From an uncultured delta proteobacterium (lineage in GTDB: Bacteria; Myxococcota_A; Polyangia; Fen-1088): DNA of 64,000 nucleotides. The stretch covers positions 896,001 through 960,000 of the forward strand of contig CAVTRY010000011.1 in the NCBI GenBank assembly GCA_963737265.1, written 5' to 3'. Numbering within the stretch: the first letter of the stretch is position 1; each line of letters opens with the position of its first letter. The notes below the pieces were generated by a model. It was not told the origin of the DNA, made no database searches, and saw nothing but the letters and a program-made list of their open reading frames with translations. Made by a program: the position numbers and the translations under genes. Of this stretch, positions 22,751-33,951 are shown in pieces.

Positions 22751-23002
22751 ATGGTCACGGTTCAAGTGCAACTCCCCGAGGAAACCTTCTCGGCGCTTCG
22801 TCGGTCTCCCGACGAAATGGCCGGCGATCTGCGTCTTGCTGCCGCCGTGCACTGGTACTCGCGCGGCCTCATCTCGCAAGAGCGCGCTGCACAGCTGGCC
22901 GGGCTTGACCGCACGGATTTCATCCTGGCCCTCGCCCGCGAGGGTGTGGACGCCTTCGCAGTGGACATGAACTCGCTCAGGCGAGAACTGGCCGATGGCT
23001 GA
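22751..23002 (+). CDS. UPF0175 family antitoxin
   Basis: LRLAAAVHWY..ISQERAAQLAGLDRTDF. Confidence 0.88.
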   Translation: MVTVQVQLPEETFSALRRSPDEMAGDLRLAAAVHWYSRGLISQERAAQLAGLDRTDFILALAREGVDAFAVDMNSLRRELADG

Positions 23003-23480
23003 CCAGGCCGTTGTCAACGCATCACCGCTCATCTGCCTGAGTCGCGCCGGTCTGGTAGATCTGCTTCGGCAGGCGGCGAAGACGATCATCGTGCCGGCGG
23101 CGGTGGCACGCGAGATCCTAGCGCGCGGCCCGAGCGACGTGACGGCCAACGCAGTGGCCACGGCCACGTGGATGAAGCAGGCCGATGACATCGCCATACC
23201 GTCCAACGTCCTGGCGTGGGATCTCGGCGCCGGTGAATCGTCCGTGTTGGCGTGGGCGCTTTCCCACCCGGGAACGCCTGCCATCATTGACGACCTTCAA
23301 GGCCGCCGTTGTGCAGAATCCTTGGGCATCACCTTGCGCGGCACCGTAGGCCTCGTCTTGCGCGCCCGCCGCTCCGGACTGATCGATTCGGCCCGCGCCG
23401 CCCTCGAACGTCTGCGCCGAGGTGGAATGTACCTCTCGGATCGCCTCTGCGTCGAAGTGCTGAAAGAAGTAGGCGAATAG
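22995..23480 (+). CDS. DUF3368 PIN-domain protein
   Basis: VVNASPLI, LGAGE, IIDD, GTVGLV. Confidence 0.88.
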   Translation: MADQAVVNASPLICLSRAGLVDLLRQAAKTIIVPAAVAREILARGPSDVTANAVATATWMKQADDIAIPSNVLAWDLGAGESSVLAWALSHPGTPAIIDDLQGRRCAESLGITLRGTVGLVLRARRSGLIDSARAALERLRRGGMYLSDRLCVEVLKEVGE

Positions 23481-23584
23481 CAGGAGGCAAACCACGCGGC
23501 CGAGGTCGTCAGAGGTAGCGACTCGTTCTAGTCTGTCTTCCGCGTGTCTGGCAGGCATCCGTCACTAGAGATGCCGCGCGCTGA

Positions 23585-24142
23585 CAGACGCGCGCAGCGT
23601 GCCGACGATGCGGGAAACCGCGCTCTTCGACAGCGGGGCATCCTTGAGCAATGGCCGAAGCGCCCCGCGAATTCGACGACTATTGCCACCAGCCAAGTAC
23701 ACGCCAGCGATGGCCTCGTTGATCTCTGGCATGCGGCGCTGGTAGCGCGGAACGATGCTCGAACGCCACTCCTCGTTGCCACCGTCGTCTCGCAGCAGGC
23801 GCCCGCGTGGCAGTGTCAATTCCACCGGCCCGGTCGGGCACGTGAGCGTCCTGGACTTGCTCCCGTTTCGATAGCCACTGCGTTCGGCGCCGCGCTCGTA
23901 CGCGGCTACGCCCAACACGGCCTGCAATTCCTCTTCGACAGCCTGCTCGATGGTCCTGCGAACCGCTTGATGGATCAGTGAACCAAGCGAGACTTCATCA
24001 GCCCCAACTGGACGTAGATTCCTGGTAAATTTCTTCACGGCGCATTCCTTTCCTTGGTTGCGTCCGGCATGGTGCCGGACTGCGTTTCACACCCAGGAGA
24101 ATGCGCCTCCTTTCAAATTTCCACACGACTCGGGACGGAACC
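23585..24142 (-). mobile_element. Truncated IS256-family element (transposase N-terminus and one end)
   Basis: ORF 23565-24038 has YER...GYRNG..RTL..TGPVELTLPRGR and LSKSAVSRI. Probable IR GGTTCCGTCCCGAGTCGTGTGG ends at 24142. Confidence 0.8.
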
Positions 24143-24216: not shown

Positions 24217-25235
24217 TGAATCGCATGTTCCCTACGAAGTTCAGACTGGCTTCTGCATCGGTGGTTTCAGCCATGGCTATTCTTGCGTCCTTGTGCCCAA
24301 GAACCAGCGCCGCTGAAAAGCGAACGCACGAGCTATTCGCCGTATTGACTGACGCGGAAACGAATACGCCCGTCCCGTCAGTCAGGATAATGCTGGCGCC
24401 CCAAAAAGGTAATCACGAATGCACGATTGATACCAGACTCACGGGGATCAGCAACGAAAAGGGTGAAGTTCTGATTCCAAATGTCAAACCTGGCGAATAC
24501 ATCGTTTTCCAAAGTCCATCAGGGTCTCTCAACCCGGAACTGAACGGAAAGGTGGTGACCTGGATGCCTTCTTCAGGTGGCTACGGCTTCTCGTTCGGTG
24601 CCGTGAGGGCCACCAAGGGCAACATGGTGATCACTTCCGAAGGCGATCTCGGGATCGCCAATGGATACATGGAAGCGCAAGTAGCCGCTGGGGACGACGG
24701 CATACTAGGCATCAGCACAACTGCCAAAGGAAGCTTGTCAACGGTGCGGACGCCTTGGACTAAAGGAGACCACCTAATCATCGTGACTAAGGCTGCCCAC
24801 ACGGACCTGCGTGCGCCATCACCGCCGAAAGAGAAATCGCCCGTGCCCTCTGCGCCTATGACTTCCTCGGTTCGGACATCGGTGTCTGCATCCGCGTCGC
24901 ACCTGGCCGGAGCGGCTGAGAACCCCGGTGAGACGTTCAAAGCGGTTGGGCTCGTCTGGCAGAAACAGCCACGCGATATGAACTGGAACGACGCCGCAGC
25001 ATACTGTGCGAGGCTGTCTGGGGGCCACTGGCGGTTACCGTCGCTCGAAGAACTCTCGGCGCTGGCGAAAAGCCACTCCATCGCGGCGGAGCCCCAGGGG
25101 ACGTCGCATGGGTGGTACTGGTCCTCTTCGGCGAAAGGGGACGTCGCGTGGTACGTGAGCTTCATCGAGCGTTACGAGGGGTCCAGTATGTCCTATACGG
25201 CATACGGCGTGCTGTCCGTCCGATGTGTCCGTTAA
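24217..25235 (+). CDS. Secreted protein with C-terminal DUF1566 (Lcl/CLec-like) domain
   Basis: Signal-like N-terminus; GLVWQ, MNWNDAAAYC, WRLPSLEEL, YWSSS, VRCVR. Confidence 0.85.
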
Positions 25236-25576
25236 GCGTCGATTTCGCTCGACGTGTGAGAGTCTGGGTTGGCGATACAACGTACTTGCCTGTGATCGGT
25301 GGTTTCATCTTCCTGGTCGTGTTCATCGACCTCTTCTCACGCAAGGTGGTTGGTTGGTCGCTGGGTGACCGCCTTGATGCCGATTTGTCGAGAGAGGCAC
25401 TTCTTCATCGCCGGTGGTCCCGAAAATGGGGATGGCGGCTTGGTGCCGAAATTCGGGCGGGCGGCGGAGCAGCGATGGTGGGCGGGCCATCGCGGTTTAA
25501 GAGGCCGAAATGGAAAGGGCACGGGAAGTCGCGCCTGGGCGACTTCCCGTGCTCTTGGGACAGATTGGGCTGACGA

Positions 25577-26362
25577 CTAATCGTCGAGGGGAGCGCCGAC
25601 GATCTCCTTTGGGGCGCGGCAGCTTTTGCCTGTGAAGCGAAGGATGGTAGCGCGGTCGACCAGGCGGTCGACGGTGGAGACGGCGGAGGCTTCGGAGGGA
25701 AAGGCGTTCTTCCATTGCTGAAAGCCGGTATTGGCGGTGAGCACGATCGAGCCCTGGCCGTGTCTGGCACCGACGACGCGGAACAGGTAGTTGGTGGTGT
25801 GGGTGTCAAAGGCCTGGTAGGCGAATTCGTCGATGAGCAGCAGCGCCGGCTTGACGTAGCGGCGCAGGGCCCGGCGGAAGGTGCCGTCGGCCTGCGAGGC
25901 GTGGAGGTCTTCAAGCATGTCGGCGCAGAGGACGCAGAGGGTGGAGTGACCAGCGATGCAGGCTGCGTGGGCCAGGGCCTTGGCGATGCGGGTCTTGCCG
26001 GTGCCGGGTTTGCCGAGACAGAGGACGTTGCGGCGCTCCTCGACGAATCGGCAGTTGACCAGCTCGTTGACCACGCGGGGCTCGAGTTGTGGCCGAATCT
26101 GAAAGTCGAATCCGTCGAGTCCCTCGACCGTGCCGAGGCGCGATCGACGCAAGCTGCGCTCAAGACGGCGCTCGCGGCGGGCATCGGTCTCGGCACGAAG
26201 CAAGGCACCGGCAAAGGCCGTGAAGGCCATGCCCTCCTGTTCAGCACGGCGAAGCATGCTGGGCAAGGCTGCGGACAGTGTGGTCAGGTCCAGGTCGATG
26301 GCGAGTTGGACCAGCTCATCGACGGGATCTGGAGCCGGTGGGCGGTGGCGACTACGAGCCAT
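25577..26362 (-). CDS. istB: IstB-like AAA+ ATPase
   Basis: FDF, GKPGTGKT, LLLIDEFAY, DRLVD. Confidence 0.92.
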   Translation of the reverse strand: MARSRHRPPAPDPVDELVQLAIDLDLTTLSAALPSMLRRAEQEGMAFTAFAGALLRAETDARRERRLERSLRRSRLGTVEGLDGFDFQIRPQLEPRVVNELVNCRFVEERRNVLCLGKPGTGKTRIAKALAHAACIAGHSTLCVLCADMLEDLHASQADGTFRRALRRYVKPALLLIDEFAYQAFDTHTTNYLFRVVGARHGQGSIVLTANTGFQQWKNAFPSEASAVSTVDRLVDRATILRFTGKSCRAPKEIVGAPLDD

Positions 26363-28052
26363 GATTGTCCTCCTCAGGGAGCGCGACTGACAAGGTGGCG
26401 TTCCCGTGGCTCGCTTCTTGGTGGCCAGGCTGGGCGTCGAGGTCGGCAAATGCGTCGAGAGAGGGCGCCTCGATCTCGCCAAGGATGGTGGGACCGCATC
26501 CGAAAAGTGGCGAGACAGCGTCGATGTCGGGCAGCGGCTCGGCCTGCTGGTCGAGGATGCGTTCGACGGCGGTGGCATCGAAACGGCGAAAGTGCTGGAC
26601 CCTGGTGGCGGCGACACGAAAAGCGTCTTCGCCGAAGCGGTCGCACAAACGCAGCAGGGCGCGGATGTGGATGGGCGCGAGGGTCTTCATGCGGCACTTG
26701 AGGCCATCGACCAAAGGAGCGAGGTCGGGAAAGCGACGTAGGAAGGCCTCGTCGAGGCGGTCGCCACCGTCGACCAGGCCCCGACCAAATCCGCGTCGTG
26801 GGAGATTGGCGTAGTGGGTCTCGTCGATGACGAGACGGCCCTTCTGCTCGTCGGGGACGTAGATGCGGGAAAAGGCGACGCAGCCGTGCGGGTCGAGGAC
26901 GTCGAAGTGCTCGGCAAAGAGCCGTACGGCGACTGAACGGCCCGCCAGTGCGGCGGGCACCGTGTACCTGGTCCCGTGGATCGAGAGAGTGGAGTCGCGA
27001 TCGACGATCCGTGGGGCGCTCTCGTGGACCGGGAAGCGGTCTCGGGGTAAGCGGATGAGCAGGGCGTGTTCCTCGCTGTCCCAGACCTCGTTGGGGACGC
27101 GCCGGGTGGTTCCGTGGACGCGGAGGTTGCCGAGAGTTGGAGTTTCGTCGAGCCAGCGGCGACAGCGCGCGTGCAGGTCGTCCCAGGAGGCGAATTCGGT
27201 GCCCTTGACGAAATCGTCCCAGACGAGGCGGAAGGACTTCTCCTTCTTGCCCTTGCGATCTGGGTCGCGGACTTTGCAGGCGAAGGCATCCATGCCGTAG
27301 TGGCGGACGAAGTCAGCGAAGCGGTCATGCCACAGGGGCTTGCGCCCAGAGCCTATGCGGCCGAGGACCGCAGTCGACATGTTGTCCAGGACCAGCCGAT
27401 GTGCGACGCCGTCAAAGTACTCGAAGGCGCTGGCAAGCCCCTCAAGTAGAGTCGACTGGCGCTCGTCACGGTAGAAGTGGAGGAAGAGTTTGCGCGAGTA
27501 GCACAGGAGGCAGCCGAGGACATGTACCTTCACCGGTCGGCCCGCTATCAGGATTTCGTAGGGGCTCCAGTCGATCTGCATCTCGACCGCGGGACCAGTC
27601 TCGAAACGGCGCTTGGTGGTTGGCTTCCGTGGTAGCACCGTCATCTCGGCGCGGAGCTTGCGGAGGTGTTCGGCCAAGATCGTCCGGCCGCCCGAGTACC
27701 CCATTCCCGTGATCTCGCGCAGGATGCGGGTGGCCGTCAGGTCTTTCTGTACTCGATCGGCAATGGGCTCGTAGAATGGCTGAAGCTTGCTGTGAGCCAG
27801 CAGGGGCGTGTGCAGCGTCGCCAGCAGCCCTCGCTCTCGCAAGACCCGCTCGACCATCTGTCGAGTCAAGTTCGTGCGTTTGGCAATCTTCCGACTGCCG
27901 TAGAATGGGTGCAACTCCACAATTTTCTCGAGTTGCTCCAGGGTGAGCGTGCGCCGCGGCCGGCCCCGTTTGAGTTGCGGTGGCGCCGCCGGGGGTGGAT
28001 TCACAGGCGGTGAGCGGAGGGCTTCCGGCGGGTCTTTCGTGTCCATGTTCAT
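26352..28052 (-). CDS. istA: IS21-family DDE transposase
   Basis: RFETGPAVEMQIDW, LVLDNM, KGKKE, RVHGTT; AAAGGA RBS. Confidence 0.92.
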   Translation of the reverse strand: MNMDTKDPPEALRSPPVNPPPAAPPQLKRGRPRRTLTLEQLEKIVELHPFYGSRKIAKRTNLTRQMVERVLRERGLLATLHTPLLAHSKLQPFYEPIADRVQKDLTATRILREITGMGYSGGRTILAEHLRKLRAEMTVLPRKPTTKRRFETGPAVEMQIDWSPYEILIAGRPVKVHVLGCLLCYSRKLFLHFYRDERQSTLLEGLASAFEYFDGVAHRLVLDNMSTAVLGRIGSGRKPLWHDRFADFVRHYGMDAFACKVRDPDRKGKKEKSFRLVWDDFVKGTEFASWDDLHARCRRWLDETPTLGNLRVHGTTRRVPNEVWDSEEHALLIRLPRDRFPVHESAPRIVDRDSTLSIHGTRYTVPAALAGRSVAVRLFAEHFDVLDPHGCVAFSRIYVPDEQKGRLVIDETHYANLPRRGFGRGLVDGGDRLDEAFLRRFPDLAPLVDGLKCRMKTLAPIHIRALLRLCDRFGEDAFRVAATRVQHFRRFDATAVERILDQQAEPLPDIDAVSPLFGCGPTILGEIEAPSLDAFADLDAQPGHQEASHGNATLSVALPEEDNHGS

Positions 28053-30420
28053 AGGGGTCCTTTCTCGTGGTGGATGGCCGAGGCCAAAGCTTGGCGTCGG
28101 CACTCAGGGTGGTCGCGGTCCGTCCAAGGTCGTCGAGGACGGCGCGGAAGAGCGCTTCCAGGCGTCGCCGCTCCGGTGGCGCCAGATCGCTCGGCAGATG
28201 GAAATTCGCGAGCTCGTGTAGCGTCTTGCGAAAGTGGGCCAGCGTGTCCGTCAGGACCGACGCTCGCGTCGAAAGCGAGGCTGACGTCGTAGCCGGTGCC
28301 AGTTGCCCGAGCGGATCATCAATCAGGCAGCGGCGATCCGCGGGATCGGCGGCCCGGTAGGCGGCGACCAGTGCGAGCGCTCTTCGGGTGGGTACATGGT
28401 GGTGTGTGATGGCGGCAAGCACCGTGGCCTGGTCCTGTCGCCCGAGCGGAGCCAGCGCTTCGGCGAGCGATGGGCCAATACGCCCTTGCGCCAGCGCCGC
28501 GCTCGCCTCCGCGCCGAGTGAAGTGGACCCCTTTGGTAGGACCAGAAATGGCCCGAGCTAAGAGAGAGTCCGCGTGGGTTTGTTTGTAGATCCGGGTGAG
28601 CCTCGCCGGCAAGGAAATTGTTGAGAGCGGAGGCATGCTGATGGCTGCTGTCCACGGATGCAATGCGCGCACGGCCCCACAGAAGCAGGTGAACGCGTTG
28701 CAGTTGTGGGCAGCGTGCCATCAGCATGATGCAGCGGCGATTTAGGCGGCCTCTTTCATCGCCGACTTCTTTAGTTCGAATTCGTAAAACGCTACGGGTG
28801 TCTGAAATCCAAGGGTTTGGTGAGGCCGCCTGTGGTTGTACTTGTCCAGGTAGATCGCGATGCCACTGCGGGCGTCGGCCACGTCTCGGTAGTCGTTCAA
28901 GTAGACCTCCTCGCATTTGACAGACCGCCATAGACGCTCGAACGAAGATGTTGTCCATGAATCGGCCGCGACCGTCCATGCTGACCTTTACGCCCTTGTC
29001 CAGCAAAACCGATGTGAAGTTGTCGTCGGTAAACTGCGACCCCTGGTCGGTGTTGAAGATCTCCGGCAAGCCGAAGTTCGCAAGAGCTTCTTCCACGACC
29101 TCGATGCAAAAACGGCTGTCCATCGTGTTTGAAATGCGCCAGGACAGAACCCGGCGCGTGTACCAATCCATCACGGCGACCAGGTAGCAATGCCCCTGTC
29201 TCGTCGGGATGTACGTGATATCCGAGGCCCACACCTGATTGGGCCGAATGATCGCGAGATGGCGCAGCAAGTACGGGAATTTCGTATGTTCCGGCGCGGG
29301 CACGGTCGTCCGTGGTTTGGGCGCCAGCGCTTCGATGCCCATGATTCGCATCAGTCTCTGCACCCGTTTGCGATTCACCGTCTGCCCCTGTGCCTTTAGC
29401 AACCGTGACAGCTTCCGGCTGCCGAATGCTGGCAATTCGAGATGCAGCTTGTCCAGCTCCTTGCAGATGGCCAGATCTTCCTCTGCCATCGGCATCGGCT
29501 CCCAGTAGATGCCCGATCTCGCAAGATTCAGCAGCTCGCACTGCCGACGGACAGATAGGTCGTTGTGGGGCTCGATCATGGCGCGCTTCTCCGTCAGCGA
29601 ATGCGCGCGAGCCCGCGTGCTAAAAAATCATTCTCCAGCGTCAGCTGCCCCACCTTGCGCAGCAATTCCGATTCGCGTTCGGCGTTCGCCGATTCCTCTG
29701 CATTTGCATGGCCTGGTTCGAAAACCATGGCCAGCCGTGTGACGGCTTCCTTCTTCCACTTGTGAACCAGGTTCGGGTTGATCTTGTATCGGCGCCCGAT
29801 CTCCACAACCGTTGCCTGCTCCCGCATGGCTTCGAGAGCTACCTGCGCCTTGAAGAGTGCTGTGTGCTTTTGGCGGTTCGTTTTCATCGTGTCCTGCCTC
29901 GTTGTTGAGGCGGACTACACCTTAGCTCCTGGTCCCATTTTTGGGGTCCACTTCAGAGATGTCTGGCCAATAGCAGCCGCCGCTCTACCCAGTCAGTCTT
30001 GCGTCCGCAAAGAAGCGCCACTGCCCGCGCTGACAGCTCGTCCTCGTCGACCAAGGAGGCGACGACCCGTGCCTCGTCGAGCGCGGTCAAGGAGCGCGGT
30101 GGGGCATTGGCGGCCAGCATGGTGCGCTTGTGGTCGATGCGCGAGGCCGATATCTCCAGCATCACTGGCACGTGACTGTGGCCTTGCGCCCGCCAGCGAC
30201 TGAGACGCTTGAACCCGTCAAGCACCTCGTAATGGCCATCTTCCGTCTGCGCCACCCGTACCGGCAGCTCTGCCGTGAGCATTTCCGTGGGTGCAAGACA
30301 GCCGGGACGGAGGTGCGCATAGCTTGTCCGTAGATTGGACACGGGCAGAAAGCACACTGCCCCAGCCACCTCGTCCGGCACACGCGCTTGTGGCGCAGGC
30401 AGGTCGACCGGGGCGTTCAC
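28053..30420 (-). pseudogene. ParB-like (ParB/Srx N-domain + HTH) gene interrupted by an IS3 element
   Basis: YEVLDGFKR, LTALDEA, HTH. After removing the IS the frame reads LARHL|GAEARAALAQGRI. The 3' end is uncertain because the frame stays open into istA. Confidence 0.8.
28519..29955 (-). mobile_element. IS3-family element, copy 1 (orfA 29594-29887, orfB from 29579)
   Basis: TGAAGTGGACCCC IRs, 3-bp TSD GAG, WASDITY and NTDQGSQF motifs. Confidence 0.93.
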
Positions 30421-30794
30421 CGCAACCTTTCGAAAAGCAACAGCTGGCGGAGATCTCGGTAATCACCCATACCCCGAAGCTGGTCCGCCTGGCGCGGTGG
30501 CCGGCGGGCCTCGACCACGTCGACCGTGTAAAGGGGCGTCCGCTCGTGCTCGGCGTCGAGTGTGGCACACAGACTCGACCCGTATGGACTGCCCCCTGAT
30601 CCCGCAAAAACTACACCGTGGACCTTCTGCTTCTGCCACAGCGCCAGCGCTTCTAATAGCGTTGGCAATGCACGTGCGTGCCAGGGCGTTCGCTCCAGCC
30701 GGGCCTTCAGTATCGTCTCGCCCGCATCCCCGGTCACCAGGACTCGTGTCGATCCCCGCCCCGGGTGGATTGCCACCAGGATTCGCTCTTCCAT
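30417..30794 (-). CDS. Hypothetical protein of the IS21/ParB element
   Basis: AAGGAGG RBS; 4-nt overlap with the parB-like start. Confidence 0.6.
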   Translation of the reverse strand: MEERILVAIHPGRGSTRVLVTGDAGETILKARLERTPWHARALPTLLEALALWQKQKVHGVVFAGSGGSPYGSSLCATLDAEHERTPLYTVDVVEARRPPRQADQLRGMGDYRDLRQLLLFERLR

Positions 30795-31170
30795 CGCATT
30801 CCTCCTTGCCGCCTGAATCCAGCGACAAGGGGATCTGTACCGGCAACGCAAATTCTTGGTGAGACCTATGAGTCACTTTCTGTCGGCACACGCGCTGCCG
30901 CCTGGCATGTGCACGCCGGCCCCCACGGGTCGATTGCCGAAGGCGGCTGGCCTTACGCCACGATGCGAGCAGGGCCAGTCGGCTGCAGGTGGCCGTGCAG
31001 TAGCGATTGCCGTGGTCGCAGCGAGAGCAGACGAAAAACACCTGCCCACAGCCGGGCAGGCTACATATCGCTATCCGAATCGAGTCCAATCGCGCGTCCC
31101 GTCCTGCGGCGCCCAAAAACTGGACATCTGCCTCGGAACCTGCGACGACTCGGTCGTCGACGCGTCCCAA
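30463..31170 (-). CDS. Cys-rich zinc-finger-like protein of the IS21/ParB element (boundaries uncertain)
   Basis: CSLPGC..CSRC..RYC..C cluster and an Arg-rich helix. Confidence 0.5.
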   Translation of the reverse strand: MGRVDDRVVAGSEADVQFLGAAGRDARLDSIRIAICSLPGCGQVFFVCSRCDHGNRYCTATCSRLALLASWRKASRLRQSTRGGRRAHARRQRVCRQKVTHRSHQEFALPVQIPLSLDSGGKEECDGRANPGGNPPGAGIDTSPGDRGCGRDDTEGPAGANALARTCIANAIRSAGAVAEAEGPRCSFCGIRGQSIRVESVCHTRRRARADAPLHGRRGRGPPATAPGGPASGYG

Positions 31171-31728
31171 CGTACCGACACGAGGGGCCCGGGTGTTGTG
31201 ACCCGTGCCCCTCCTCCTTCGGGAGCCGCAGCCCCCTGCTTACGCCACCTCCACCGCTGCCGCGAATTTCCTGACCAGGCCGGCGCCGTGGTCCCGTCAG
31301 CCAGCCGTCCCCGTAGGCTTCACACCGCGGAAGTCACGCCACCATGCACGCTGCTCGCCCAGCCAACGCCCCATCTCCGATTTTCGGGCCACCGCCGCTA
31401 CGGAATTTCGGAGCCACCGTCACTGAAGACTTCAGCGGGCTTTGGCGAGACGTTGCCCGGGGCCTGGCCTGATTTGCCATTCTGACCGCGGCTCCGAGTT
31501 CGCAGCCACAAGCTTCCGCGATCTCCTCAAGCAAGCGCAGGCGCTGCAGAGCATGAGCCGCAAGGGCAATTGCTGGGACAACGCCGTGGCCGAGAGCTTC
31601 TTCTCTACACTCGAATTCGAGGGACCCAATACGTCAACCTGGCGCTACGTCTGCGATGGCGAGCCCGAGATGTTCACTTTCATCGAGAGCTACTACAACC
31701 AAACCAGGCTACATTCATACAACCGTTA

Positions 31729-33018
31729 GGTGCCGTCAAGAAATAAACTTTACATGAGCGTCTGCCGCAGTACCATTTGAGCCGATTGGACCCGACACAA
31801 AGTCTCAAAGGGAAGTTCCGTCTGGTGTGGCCACACTTGAGTGAGCGTGCTCGGCGTATGCTTGCGGCGGCGGAGGCCACCAATATTGGCTATGGCGGCG
31901 TGAGTCTCGTGAGTCGCGCATGCGGCCTGTCACGGGTGACCATTACGAAGGGCGTGAAGGAACTGCGACAGAAACCTCTGCATGGAGAGCGAGTTCGACG
32001 GAAGGGAGCCGGACGCCCGAAACTGGTGACATACGATCCCGAGCTGCCGCGGCTGCTTGAGTCGCTGGTGGAGCCGCTTACCCTCGGCGATCCGGAATCG
32101 CCGCTTCGGTGGACATGCAAGAGCACTCGGGCCCTCGCTCTGGAGTTGACTGCGCGCCGCCACCCAATAAGCCACGAGAAGGTTGCCCAACTTCTACGAG
32201 ACATGGACTATAGCTTGCAGGGGAACAGGAAGACCGAAGAGGGGGAGGATCATCCGGATCGCGATGCCCAGTTTCGGCACATCAATCGAGAGGTGCGACG
32301 TACGATGGCGGAGATGTGCCCTGTGATTTCGGTGGACACCAAGAAGAAAGAACTCGTCGGAAACTATCGAAACGCCGGACAGCAGTGGCGACTCAACGGG
32401 ACTGCCGACGTGGTGAACGGCCACGACTTCCCGGATCCGTCAGTGCCCCGCGCGTACCCATATGGCATCTACGACATGGCACGCAACACGGGATTCGTGA
32501 ATGTCGGAACCGACCACGACACGGCGGCGTTCGCGGTAGCGTCGATACGCGGATGGTGGCAGCACGAAGGAAGGCACTTGTATCCTCAGTCCACCCAGCT
32601 GCTGGTCACGGCTGACTCTGGCGGCAGCAACGGCTACAGGCTGCGCTTGTGGAAGGTCGAACTGCAGCGACTTTCCGATCAGACCGGTCTATCGATCAAG
32701 GTGTGCCACTTTCCGCCAGGAACGAGCAAATGGAACAAGGTCGAGCACCGGCTCTTTTCATTCATCTCGTCGAACTGGCGGGGTGAGCCGTTACGTGACT
32801 ACGAGACAATCGTGGGCCTGATTGCAGGAACGACCACAGCAAAGGGACTCGCAGTCCAGTGTCGTCTCGATCGGCGCAAGTACCCAGTCGGCCGACGGAT
32901 CACTGACGAGGAATTGGCGGAACTCAGTATCACCCGGTTGCCGTTCCACGGTGAATGGAACTACACAATCCATCCCAGGCGAGCACGTAAGCTGTAAATG
33001 TTAATTCTTGACGGCGCC
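31729..33018 (+). mobile_element. ISAzo13-family IS (transposase 31777-32997)
   Basis: IRs GGTGCCGTCAAGAA / GGCGCCGTCAAGAA, TSD TTA; SVDTKKKE, ADSGGSNG, PPGTSKWNKVEHRLF. Confidence 0.93.
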
Positions 33019-33440: not shown

Positions 33441-33692
33441 ATGGTCACGGTCCAAGTGCAGATCCCCGAGGAGACCTTCTCGGCGCTTCGCCGATCTCCC
33501 GACGAGATAGCCGGCGAGCTACGTCTTGCTGCCGCCGTCCACTGGTACTCGCGCGGCCTCATCTCGCAAGAGCGCGCTGCACAGCTGGCTGGGCTTGACC
33601 GAACGGATTTCATCCTGGTTCTCGCCCGCGAGGGTATGGACGTCTTCGCGGTGGACATGAACTCGCTCAGGCGAGAACTGGCTGATGGCTGA
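33441..33692 (+). CDS. UPF0175 family antitoxin (near-identical to 22751-23002); partner PIN gene truncated
   Basis: Near-identical protein; DNA similarity spans about 33411-33710 vs 22721-23020. Confidence 0.85.
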   Translation: MVTVQVQIPEETFSALRRSPDEIAGELRLAAAVHWYSRGLISQERAAQLAGLDRTDFILVLAREGMDVFAVDMNSLRRELADG

Positions 33693-33951
33693 CCAGGCCC
33701 TCGTCAACGCCTCCCTGTATACGATCGCCCGGAAAGACGGCGCGACGATCGTGACGAGCGCGGGCCCGAGATGCTCCAACCGCTTGGAATCCAAAGCGCA
33801 TGTCGAAACCAGCGATCTAGCTCAGCGCGATCGTGTCCGAGCCCTCTGACGTGATCGTTTCCATATTGGACCGTCGATAGGCGCACCACGCGCGTGAAAC
33901 GCGTGGCAAAGAAGCCATCCTCCCGGAATCAGACTGGGTTATCCTCCTGCT

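Follow-up and report, generated by a model that had tools for sequence, protein, structure and literature searches.

A recently active IS21-family element from a widespread, apparently undescribed branch carrying a ParB/Noc-type gene directly upstream of istA

The stretch of DNA analysed here (the window; 64,000 nucleotides, contig CAVTRY010000011.1 of assembly GCA_963737265.1) comes from an uncultured delta proteobacterium of the Myxococcota_A and holds, at positions 25403 to 31428, a real and recently active jumping gene of the IS21 family, with its genes on the minus strand. Its intact form is 4,586 bp long and encodes, besides the transposase IstA and the helper ATPase IstB, a ParB-like protein and two smaller products. 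The element belongs to a deep and widespread IS21 branch in which a ParB/Noc-type gene lies directly upstream of istA, and the linkage between the two genes is near-obligate. A first-pass annotation, made from the sequence alone, had described the locus as a five-gene transposon of a distinct subfamily.

The window copy measures 6,026 bp, including a nested insertion of 1,437 bp. A BLASTN search of the same genome returned a whole, uninterrupted copy of 4,586 bp on contig C21 (349715–354300), which is 99.8–100% identical, has the same first and last bases and is flanked by AGCTG on both sides. It also returned two partial copies, a fragment of 983 bp from one end of the element, situated 10 kb from the whole copy on C21, and a piece of 2,879 bp with which contig C8 ends. 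Metagenome contigs from two further runs, 95–99% alike, span the element from first to last base and then continue into different, unrelated flanks; sequence depth beyond the element bounds is zero in these runs. The gene in which the window copy lies, an IS3-type orfB, is present as two halves that align to adjoining parts of one IS3 OrfB, one to residues 112–162 and the other from about residue 161 (extrapolated from a match over residues 174–224). Based on the second copy, the contigs of the other runs and the adjoining halves of the host gene, the boundaries are exact to the base, and the 4.6-kb element moves as one unit. The first-pass annotation had drawn the same bounds, had noticed the interrupted IS3 frame and had named the flanking duplication ACTT; all three points are borne out, but the length of the duplication is not fixed at 4 bp. 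It is very improbable that the extra genes lie outside the mobile unit, as neighbours caught between unrelated IS ends, or that the assembly is at fault. IS debris is abundant around the element (IS256-type, IS3-type and ISAzo13-type genes), yet the 4,586 bp recur with identical ends at a second site with its own duplication and in other samples with other flanks, and in a Terriglobia metagenome-assembled genome (MAG) four copies move as a unit of about 4.7 kb, the ParB gene included. Local hopping was also considered, since two of the four copies in the host genome are 10 kb apart on C21, and was set aside because four copies are too few for such an argument.

In its intact form the element is a tightly packed operon of five co-oriented open reading frames (ORFs), in the order zinc-ribbon ORF, small RNase H-fold ORF, ParB-like gene, istA and istB, and thus departs from the two-gene layout of the IS21 family. 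The 6,026 bp had been taken as one such five-gene element by the first-pass annotation, which overlooked the nested insertion. The latter is an IS3-family element bracketed by a GAG duplication (28516–28518 and 29956–29958), whose orfA and orfB match the Pfam families HTH_Tnp_1, HTH_21 and rve, and which is found elsewhere in the genome in 19 full-length near-identical copies and 4 partial ones (BLASTN). It splits the ParB-like gene of the window copy. The order of events was the landing of the IS21-type element in an IS3-type transposase gene, followed by the disruption of its ParB-like gene by an IS3-family insertion. A promoter scan found no sigma-70-like promoter in the upstream end. In RNA libraries from two studies there are contigs that match portions of the zinc-finger, ParB-like, istA and istB regions (93–99% identity); as contigs show neither strand nor freedom from DNA carry-over, they are not proof of expression.

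Judged by its two transposition proteins, the element belongs to the IS21 family. IstA scores 206.8 with the NCBIfam model transpos_IS21 (NF033546; cut-off 160) and also matches rve and Mu-transpos_C_2, and its DDE triad (D178, D240 and E288) is invariant in a 15-row alignment. The true start of istA is probably the ATG at codon 18 or 20. IstB reaches 191.1 bits with Pfam IstB_IS21 (PF01695; cut-off 24.1) and 199 with NCBIfam IS21_help_AAA (NF038214), one bit under the cut-off of 200. The istB gene is directly 3' of istA with an 11-nt overlap, an arrangement shared with the canonical IS21 and IS5376, in which a DDE transposase is likewise followed by an overlapping AAA+ ATPase gene. What differs is the presence of three extra genes, of which the ParB-like one is constant in the branch, and the size, 4.6 kb compared with about 2.1–2.3 kb in the four plasmid IS21s used for comparison. 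IstA is only distantly related (25–37% identity) to the IstA proteins of plasmids and of the host's own phylum.

The linkage was followed from both sides. An IstA scan of metagenome_contigs that was blind to ParB, seeded with a 7-row alignment (the 15-row alignment was too diverse as a seed), yielded 335 relatives, and the best 80 (49–66% identity) were kept. Within this best 80, a ParB-like ORF is located directly upstream of istA in 69 of the 70 loci with at least 900 bp of upstream DNA, while the 3' end of a ParB-like gene is visible at the contig edge in 7 of the 10 loci with short upstream DNA. The sole exception (L121) is a 5'-truncated, near-identical copy of a locus (L120) which does have the ParB-like gene. 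When genome_contigs was scanned with ParB as the seed, 61 loci were obtained from many phyla (Actinomycetota, Acidobacteriota, Planctomycetota, Chloroflexota, Myxococcota, Bacillota, Bacteroidota and others). IstA is encoded directly downstream in 35 of the 36 loci where the match covers at least 150 aa and the downstream DNA measures at least 1,500 nt, and also in 17 of the remaining 25. A first scan of genome_contigs with the single IstA protein had found no relative. In the host's phylum, 76 of 401 genomes (host included) have an IstA match at E ≤ 1e-20, with a best non-self identity of 37%, and 15 of the 29 distant IstA loci fetched have a ParB-like ORF directly upstream, including the 8 best-scoring. 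Among 40 relatives of the host no close homologue of the ParB-like protein turned up, and the best non-self match reaches 33% identity. Against 1.84 billion cluster representatives, the ParB profile gave 514 matches at E ≤ 1e-30 and 9,504 at E ≤ 1e-10, the second figure surely taking in other ParB proteins. According to the first-pass annotation, the proposal of a distinct subfamily was to be given up if ParB linkage turned out to be sporadic among close IstA homologs; with 69 of 70 loci linked it is not, and the subfamily is strongly supported by this linkage and by the CTTCA-type ends described below. No description of a ParB-linked IS21 group was found in a search of the full-text literature (supplements and ISfinder were outside its scope), and the accessible parts of PMC8813620 and PMC13139386 are unrelated to such a group; the branch is apparently undescribed.

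An IstA tree was built from 93 cores after de-duplication at 85%, 73 of which have ParB, 12 have none and 8 could not be labelled; it comes from a quick search with Shimodaira-Hasegawa-like approximate likelihood ratio (SH-aLRT) support only, and from a biased sample, as many rows were found through ParB. The label requires two changes on this tree. Eleven of the 12 rows without ParB share a single clade of 15 rows (support 93) with the four plain plasmid IS21s, and the twelfth (L104) is nested among ParB-linked rows. That only one loss is seen on the tree suggests a role for the ParB-like gene in the element's own spread. The alternative that the gene is cargo serving the host replicon or carrier (plasmid stability, partition or anti-defence), with no role in transposition, seems improbable to us. 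Plasmids, phages and islands often encode ParB-fold proteins, and neither a ParA gene nor a parS site was found in the element, which would suit cargo. Cargo, however, varies between related elements, whereas the ParB-like gene keeps the same position, orientation and overlap with istA in many phyla. The protein also diverges together with IstA (30–35% identity where IstA proteins are 28–31% identical), and it has no match in 72,556 PLSDB plasmid records at E ≤ 1e-6; at least 5,000 records of this database contain an IstA homologue (24–35% identical among the best listed).

Three relatives can be mentioned in their own right. The same genome carries a second, distant ParB-IstA element (L019; contig C10, 2350–4487), with a ParB 34% and an IstA 30% identical to those described here, and this element groups with an Acidobacteriaceae copy on the IstA tree. 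A Planctomycetota MAG (loci L074–L079) contains a distant ParB-linked element of 4.4 kb with at least two near-identical copies (L074 and L077) in which istA is interrupted by an in-frame stop; of four copies checked, three show 6-bp duplications and TGTCAG ends. On a 1.45-Mb MAG contig (L027), a full-length ParB-like gene with the usual upstream ORF is not followed by IstA in the next 7 kb, which is seen at no other of the 36 ParB-seeded loci.

Both the profile and the predicted fold identify the extra protein (376 aa from the intact gene) as a genuine member of the ParB/Noc type. A 26-member profile matches Noc (E 6.6e-21), Spo0J (9e-19) and Myxococcus xanthus ParB (4e-16) in the PDB, covering the N-terminal and helix-turn-helix (HTH) domains. 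The AlphaFold model has a predicted local distance difference test (pLDDT) score of 77.6, with residues 20–300 predicted as folded and 304–376 as disordered; in a Foldseek search its matches include ParB and Noc with bound CTP or CDP (E 2.5e-10, 17–22% identity) and KorB chains. The HTH domain is weakly recognized by PF17762 (18.3 bits, cut-off 22.6), the PDB profile matches span the region, and the model has pLDDT >90 over residues 110–220. In 26 diverse members D68, G69, R72, E116, W144, R148 and Q184 are invariant, and F70, K71 and N105 nearly so. The motif DGFKR, which the first-pass annotation had rightly read as GxxR, occupies the ParB box II position and aligns to GERR of Noc and ParB. 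As in the chromosomal ParB/Spo0J and Noc proteins, the N-terminal ParB/Srx domain with box II is followed by an HTH domain (profile E-values of 1e-19 to 1e-21). The differences are that box II reads DGF(K/R)R instead of GERR, that no ParA, parS, Noc-binding site (NBS) or membrane helix is found, and that the C-terminus is of another kind, modelled as a helical hairpin at residues 238–296.

The substitutions in boxes II and III bear on whether the protein works as a CTPase. The glutamate of box II is replaced by Phe70, which corresponds to E93 of M. xanthus ParB as read off the sequence of a mutant chain (7o0n; E93A, with GARR at this position), and in box III the sequence ENLQR becomes (A/S)N(A/S)PxR, with Ala or Ser in place of Glu and with Asn and Arg kept. 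The catalytic glutamates of the ParB, Noc and KorB CTPase clamps are therefore absent from both boxes. It is these glutamates that drive CTP hydrolysis in ParB-family CTPases. Considering that the GxxR pocket is kept while both glutamates are replaced, the protein would be expected to bind a nucleotide with little hydrolysis; CTP hydrolysis itself is doubtful, and the case for CTP dependence, as had been suggested for the locus, is weakened by these residues.

The two ORFs upstream of the ParB-like gene are far less constant. No Pfam family matches the zinc-ribbon ORF, for which the Atlas gives unnamed clusters only, and none is significant for the small ORF or for six upstream ORF families of the relatives. 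The small ORF is predicted to have an RNase H-like fold (pLDDT 76, predicted TM-score (pTM) 0.73), its best Foldseek match being YqgF/RuvX (1nu0, TM-score 0.64), with RuvC chains at 0.42–0.48, and the Atlas gives a sub-threshold lead to DEDD_Tnp_IS110 (0.89). Homologues occur in L115, L097, L029 and L092. Catalytic carboxylates are not conserved among them: the first-strand position is His or Ser, and the strand-4 Asp, present in three of the five homologues, is absent from the ORF of the window element. Among the relatives the slot upstream of ParB is filled by at least five unrelated ORF families. The commonest, at 67 loci, is a family of about 140 aa with the motif PDPGFY...RFRxS..GNRML and no Pfam match (L023, L024, L026, L027, L032, L033, L053, L123 and others), which is absent from the window element; a winged-helix-like family is found in 14 loci and several zinc-ribbon families in 8–10 loci each. 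The pair of zinc-finger and small ORFs of the window element recurs only in L115 and L029, and the zinc finger alone in L129. The five-gene set is thus lineage-specific, and the conserved core is ParB-IstA-IstB.

This distribution speaks against the earlier reading of the locus, in which the three extra genes form one module for target selection or immunity driven by CTP hydrolysis. The GxxR position is conserved, and a third protein governs target choice in other systems that pair a transposase with an AAA+ protein (TniQ in Tn7/Tn5053). However, ParB is not consistently accompanied by the zinc-finger and small ORFs, whose place is most often taken by the unrelated family of about 140 aa, the box II and box III glutamates are replaced, and no site specificity is apparent from duplications or flanks. 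Of the three genes only the ParB-like one is constant while the slot upstream of it varies, and we consider a three-gene module of this type improbable.

The ParB-like gene is also closely packed against istA. In all 113 loci measured, the ParB frame passes the position of IstA residue 46, with a median overhang of 376 nt over istA (118 nt in the window element). In this overlap the ParB frame puts the third-codon positions of istA first, and the overlapping ParB tail is predicted to be disordered. The open stretch of the ParB frame exceeds what synonymous istA shuffles allow (P ≤ 0.05) in 20 of 48 non-redundant elements. The long overlap (27850–28103 in the window; relatives L022–L192) may either code in both frames or serve to couple translation. 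A frameshift fusion of ParB and IstA was considered and rejected: istA is in the +1 frame relative to ParB, and the sole fused protein (P0006) is a deletion derivative.

With regard to function, transposition itself would proceed as in IS21, with IstA binding the two direct repeats of each end and synapsing the ends, and IstB delivering the target DNA. The ParB-like protein would be an obligate third component, not cargo, co-expressed with IstA; it would bind DNA via its HTH domain and, in the conserved GxxR pocket, a nucleotide that is hydrolysed little or not at all, and would most likely act on DNA at or near the element, controlling when and where IstA and IstB assemble. Candidate routes are end synapsis, target choice and self-immunity. 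Such a role as an accessory subunit is suggested by the near-universal retention of the gene, its fixed place and coupling to istA, the conserved pocket and HTH residues, and the lack of free plasmid cargo of this type. We judge the chances of this whole explanation, with the ParB-like protein gating IstA-IstB as an obligate third component, to be evenly balanced. A more specific version is put forward only tentatively: a ParB-type nucleotide-gated clamp might have been recruited as the obligate third subunit of a three-component, IS21-like class with non-CA termini, and might load on or near the element and either direct where IstB delivers (or does not deliver) the target or bridge the ends. 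There are parallels in Mu and in Tn7/Tn5053, where a transposase and an AAA+ regulator work with a third, DNA-binding selector protein (TniQ in the latter). The element described here also combines a DDE transposase of the Mu/IS21 kind with an AAA+ helper and one further obligate protein, but that protein is of the ParB type instead of TniQ/TnsD, and neither an attachment site nor site specificity is seen.

The main competing explanation is that the ParB-like protein is a transcriptional silencer only, which, like KorB, loads in the element, slides and represses the operon promoter, keeping transposase levels low without any part in the reaction; we find this rather unlikely. KorB chains are among the fold matches, and KorB itself, a CTPase clamp of the ParB family, represses promoters jointly with the small protein KorA (PMC11790492, as far as its accessible text goes). 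The position of the gene, first or second in one operon, is usual for autoregulators, and a small zinc-ribbon protein of the DNA-binding type is often encoded upstream. The element thus resembles KorB-KorA of RK2 in having a ParB-fold protein without a ParA partner on a mobile element, with a small DNA-binding-type protein nearby. On the other hand, a pure brake would be expected to be lost often under size pressure, yet the gene is kept in 69 of 70 close relatives and in several deep clades. The catalytic glutamate positions used by KorB-type CTPases are Phe and Ala/Ser here, the gene resides in a transposon instead of a plasmid regulon, and a palindrome search in 12 elements found no operator-like palindrome.

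The obligate third component, which we prefer, has to be weighed against several of the observations as well. The samples are metagenomic and interrelated, which means that the linkage counts are not independent. The search in 12 elements likewise revealed no position-conserved parS-like palindrome on which a clamp could load, and the ParB-like gene of the window copy is broken and therefore uninformative as to whether the element needs it. There is also a clade of IS21s that lack ParB but have zinc-finger and small ORFs (L092, L097 and L016), which indicates that accessory genes can come and go. The coupling to istA is not universal either: the ParB frame of low-GC relatives stops just before istA (in five such elements the overhang past the position of IstA residue 46 is only 3 nt, so that the genes are adjacent rather than overlapping), and the overlap in the window element is no longer than expected by chance (P 0.31). 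All of these count against the proposed role.

The ends of the element are built, as in the IS21 family, of at least two direct repeats, here an inward-reading unit of CGGTGG followed by CCGAAA(A/T) that is present in both ends. The motif C[CG]GAAA[AT] is found at positions 18 and 42 from one end and 18, 44 and 103 from the other, and only twice elsewhere in the 4,586 bp, the expectation being 0.09 sites per 260 nt; the repeated motifs noted at both ends in the first-pass annotation are thus real. The literal pattern GGTGGNNCCGAAA has two exact matches, one per end and at equal distance from the termini, but with up to one mismatch it is found three times in the whole window compared with 1.56 expected, which is not above chance. 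The layout matches that of IS5376, in which IstA needs the L1/L2 and R1/R2 direct repeats, and canonical IS21 elements generally have ends of two or more direct repeats and short duplications (both according to the accessible part of PMC10122671).

All copies have the ends CTTCA...TGAAG, as had been noted for the window copy, and not the 5'-TG...CA-3' of the IS21 family. Had other copies shown TG...CA ends at other bounds, the first-pass annotation would have dropped its subfamily; the copies and relatives keep CTTCA-type ends. Among the relatives, the gene-upstream end reads CTTCA in 56 loci and CTTCG in 8, and the istB-side end CCTCA in 24, CTTCA in 21 and CGTCA in 11, counts which come from a loose regular expression that picked some false sites. 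No duplication is seen at the picked ends of 52 mostly short metagenome contigs, whose flanks around the repeat are assumed to be chimeric. The four copies of the Terriglobia MAG have the ends CTTCGG... and CGTCAT..., with duplications of 4, 4, 6 and 5 bp. The four plain two-gene plasmid IS21s begin with TGT(C/T)A followed by nnGCCG(G), and the more distant ParB-linked clades also begin with TGTCA. Positions 3–12 are alike, with TGTCAnnGCCGG in the plasmid IS21s and CTTCAnnGnCGG here. Sequence comparison therefore points to ends that are homologous to the canonical ones and differ in the terminal two bases, being 5'-C(T/C/G) and ...(A/G/C)G-3' compared with 5'-TG and CA-3'. The transferred 3' end would then read ...TGA(A/G/C)G and not ...TGACA. 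The 3' CA is the signature donor end in the section of PMC10122671 available to us.

The target duplication is short, as in the IS21 family, and varies in length, with 4 bp in the window, 5 bp on C21 and a range of 4–6 bp in the branch. Duplications of the IS21 family are 4–8 bp long. That of IS5376 is 5 bp (PMC10122671, same section). No site specificity is visible in the duplications (ACTT, AGCTG, ATGG, AAGA, CAATTA and TCTCG) and flanks of the window, C21 and Terriglobia copies.

IS21 serves as a structural model for the control of a transposase by an AAA+ protein (PMC10122671 and PMC11208146, in the portions consulted), and research on the CTP switches of the ParB family is still young, with every further role (partition, nucleoid occlusion or gene silencing, for example) proving informative. 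A large IS21 branch with a ParB-type gene tied to istA would link the two fields and offer a compact, testable three-protein system. In addition, a terminal 3' G in place of the near-universal CA, on otherwise homologous ends, would be a natural variant for studying how IstA reads its cleavage site. Annotation pipelines can be expected to label such elements 'IS21 plus a chromosome-partition protein', a description which is misleading and distorts counts of both IS elements and partition systems in soil and sediment genomes. The features of the window copy are collected in Table 1.

Table 1 Features of the IS21-type element and its nested insertion in the window (positions are those of the window).
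Feature	Position	Strand	Basis or remark
Target-site duplication ACTT, left	25399..25402		Copy comparison
istB-side terminal inverted repeat, begins CTTCATCGCCGGTGG	25403..25513	+	End common to C21 copy and two other runs
istB-side inward direct repeats	~25413-25427, 25441-25455, 25502-25513	+	Repeat scan
Terminator-like hairpin 3' of istB (14-bp stem, 6-nt loop)	25519..25552	-	Consensus match only
istB, AAA+ helper ATPase, 261 aa	25577..26362	-	Pfam IstB_IS21, NCBIfam IS21_help_AAA
istA, DDE transposase, up to 583 aa	26352..28103	-	NCBIfam transpos_IS21, rve, Mu-transpos_C_2
ParB-like gene, 3' part (residues ~154-376)	27850..28518	-	Tail overlaps istA in another frame
Nested IS3-family insertion (orfA + orfB), ends TGAAGTGG...CCACTTCA	28519..29955	-	Foreign to the IS21-type element
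ParB-like gene, 5' part (residues 1 to ~155, including DGFKR)	29956..30420	-	Sequence comparison
Small ORF, 125 aa from ATG, predicted RNase H-like fold	30417..30794	-	Stop overlaps ParB-like start
Zinc-ribbon ORF, conserved first 125 codons	30796..31170	-	Open frame extends to 30463 over small ORF
Upstream terminal inverted repeat, CTTCAGTGACGGTGG read inward	31263..31428	-	Repeat scan
Upstream-end repeats	31404-31418, 31380-31393; weaker third ~31263-31276	-	Repeat scan
Target-site duplication ACTT, right	31429..31432		Copy comparison

The surroundings of the element, from 22 to 34 kb of the window, are an IS graveyard. The IS3-type orfB that served as target (25112–25402 and 31433–31729) has no other copy in the genome (BLASTN). 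From about position 31723 the DNA recurs elsewhere in the genome, as part of a repeat with an ISAzo13-type transposase gene at 31777–32997 (PF07592, E 1.8e-135), and a fragment of an IS256/Mutator-type transposase gene is located at 23565–24035. In the nested IS3-family element, the orfB frame overruns the element end and the usual OrfB C-terminus is encoded in another frame (28742–28900), which suggests a second frameshift or a systematic assembly error. Two UPF0175 antitoxin-like genes are found at 22751–23480 and 33441–33849, each with a DUF3368 gene after it, in shortened form at the second site.

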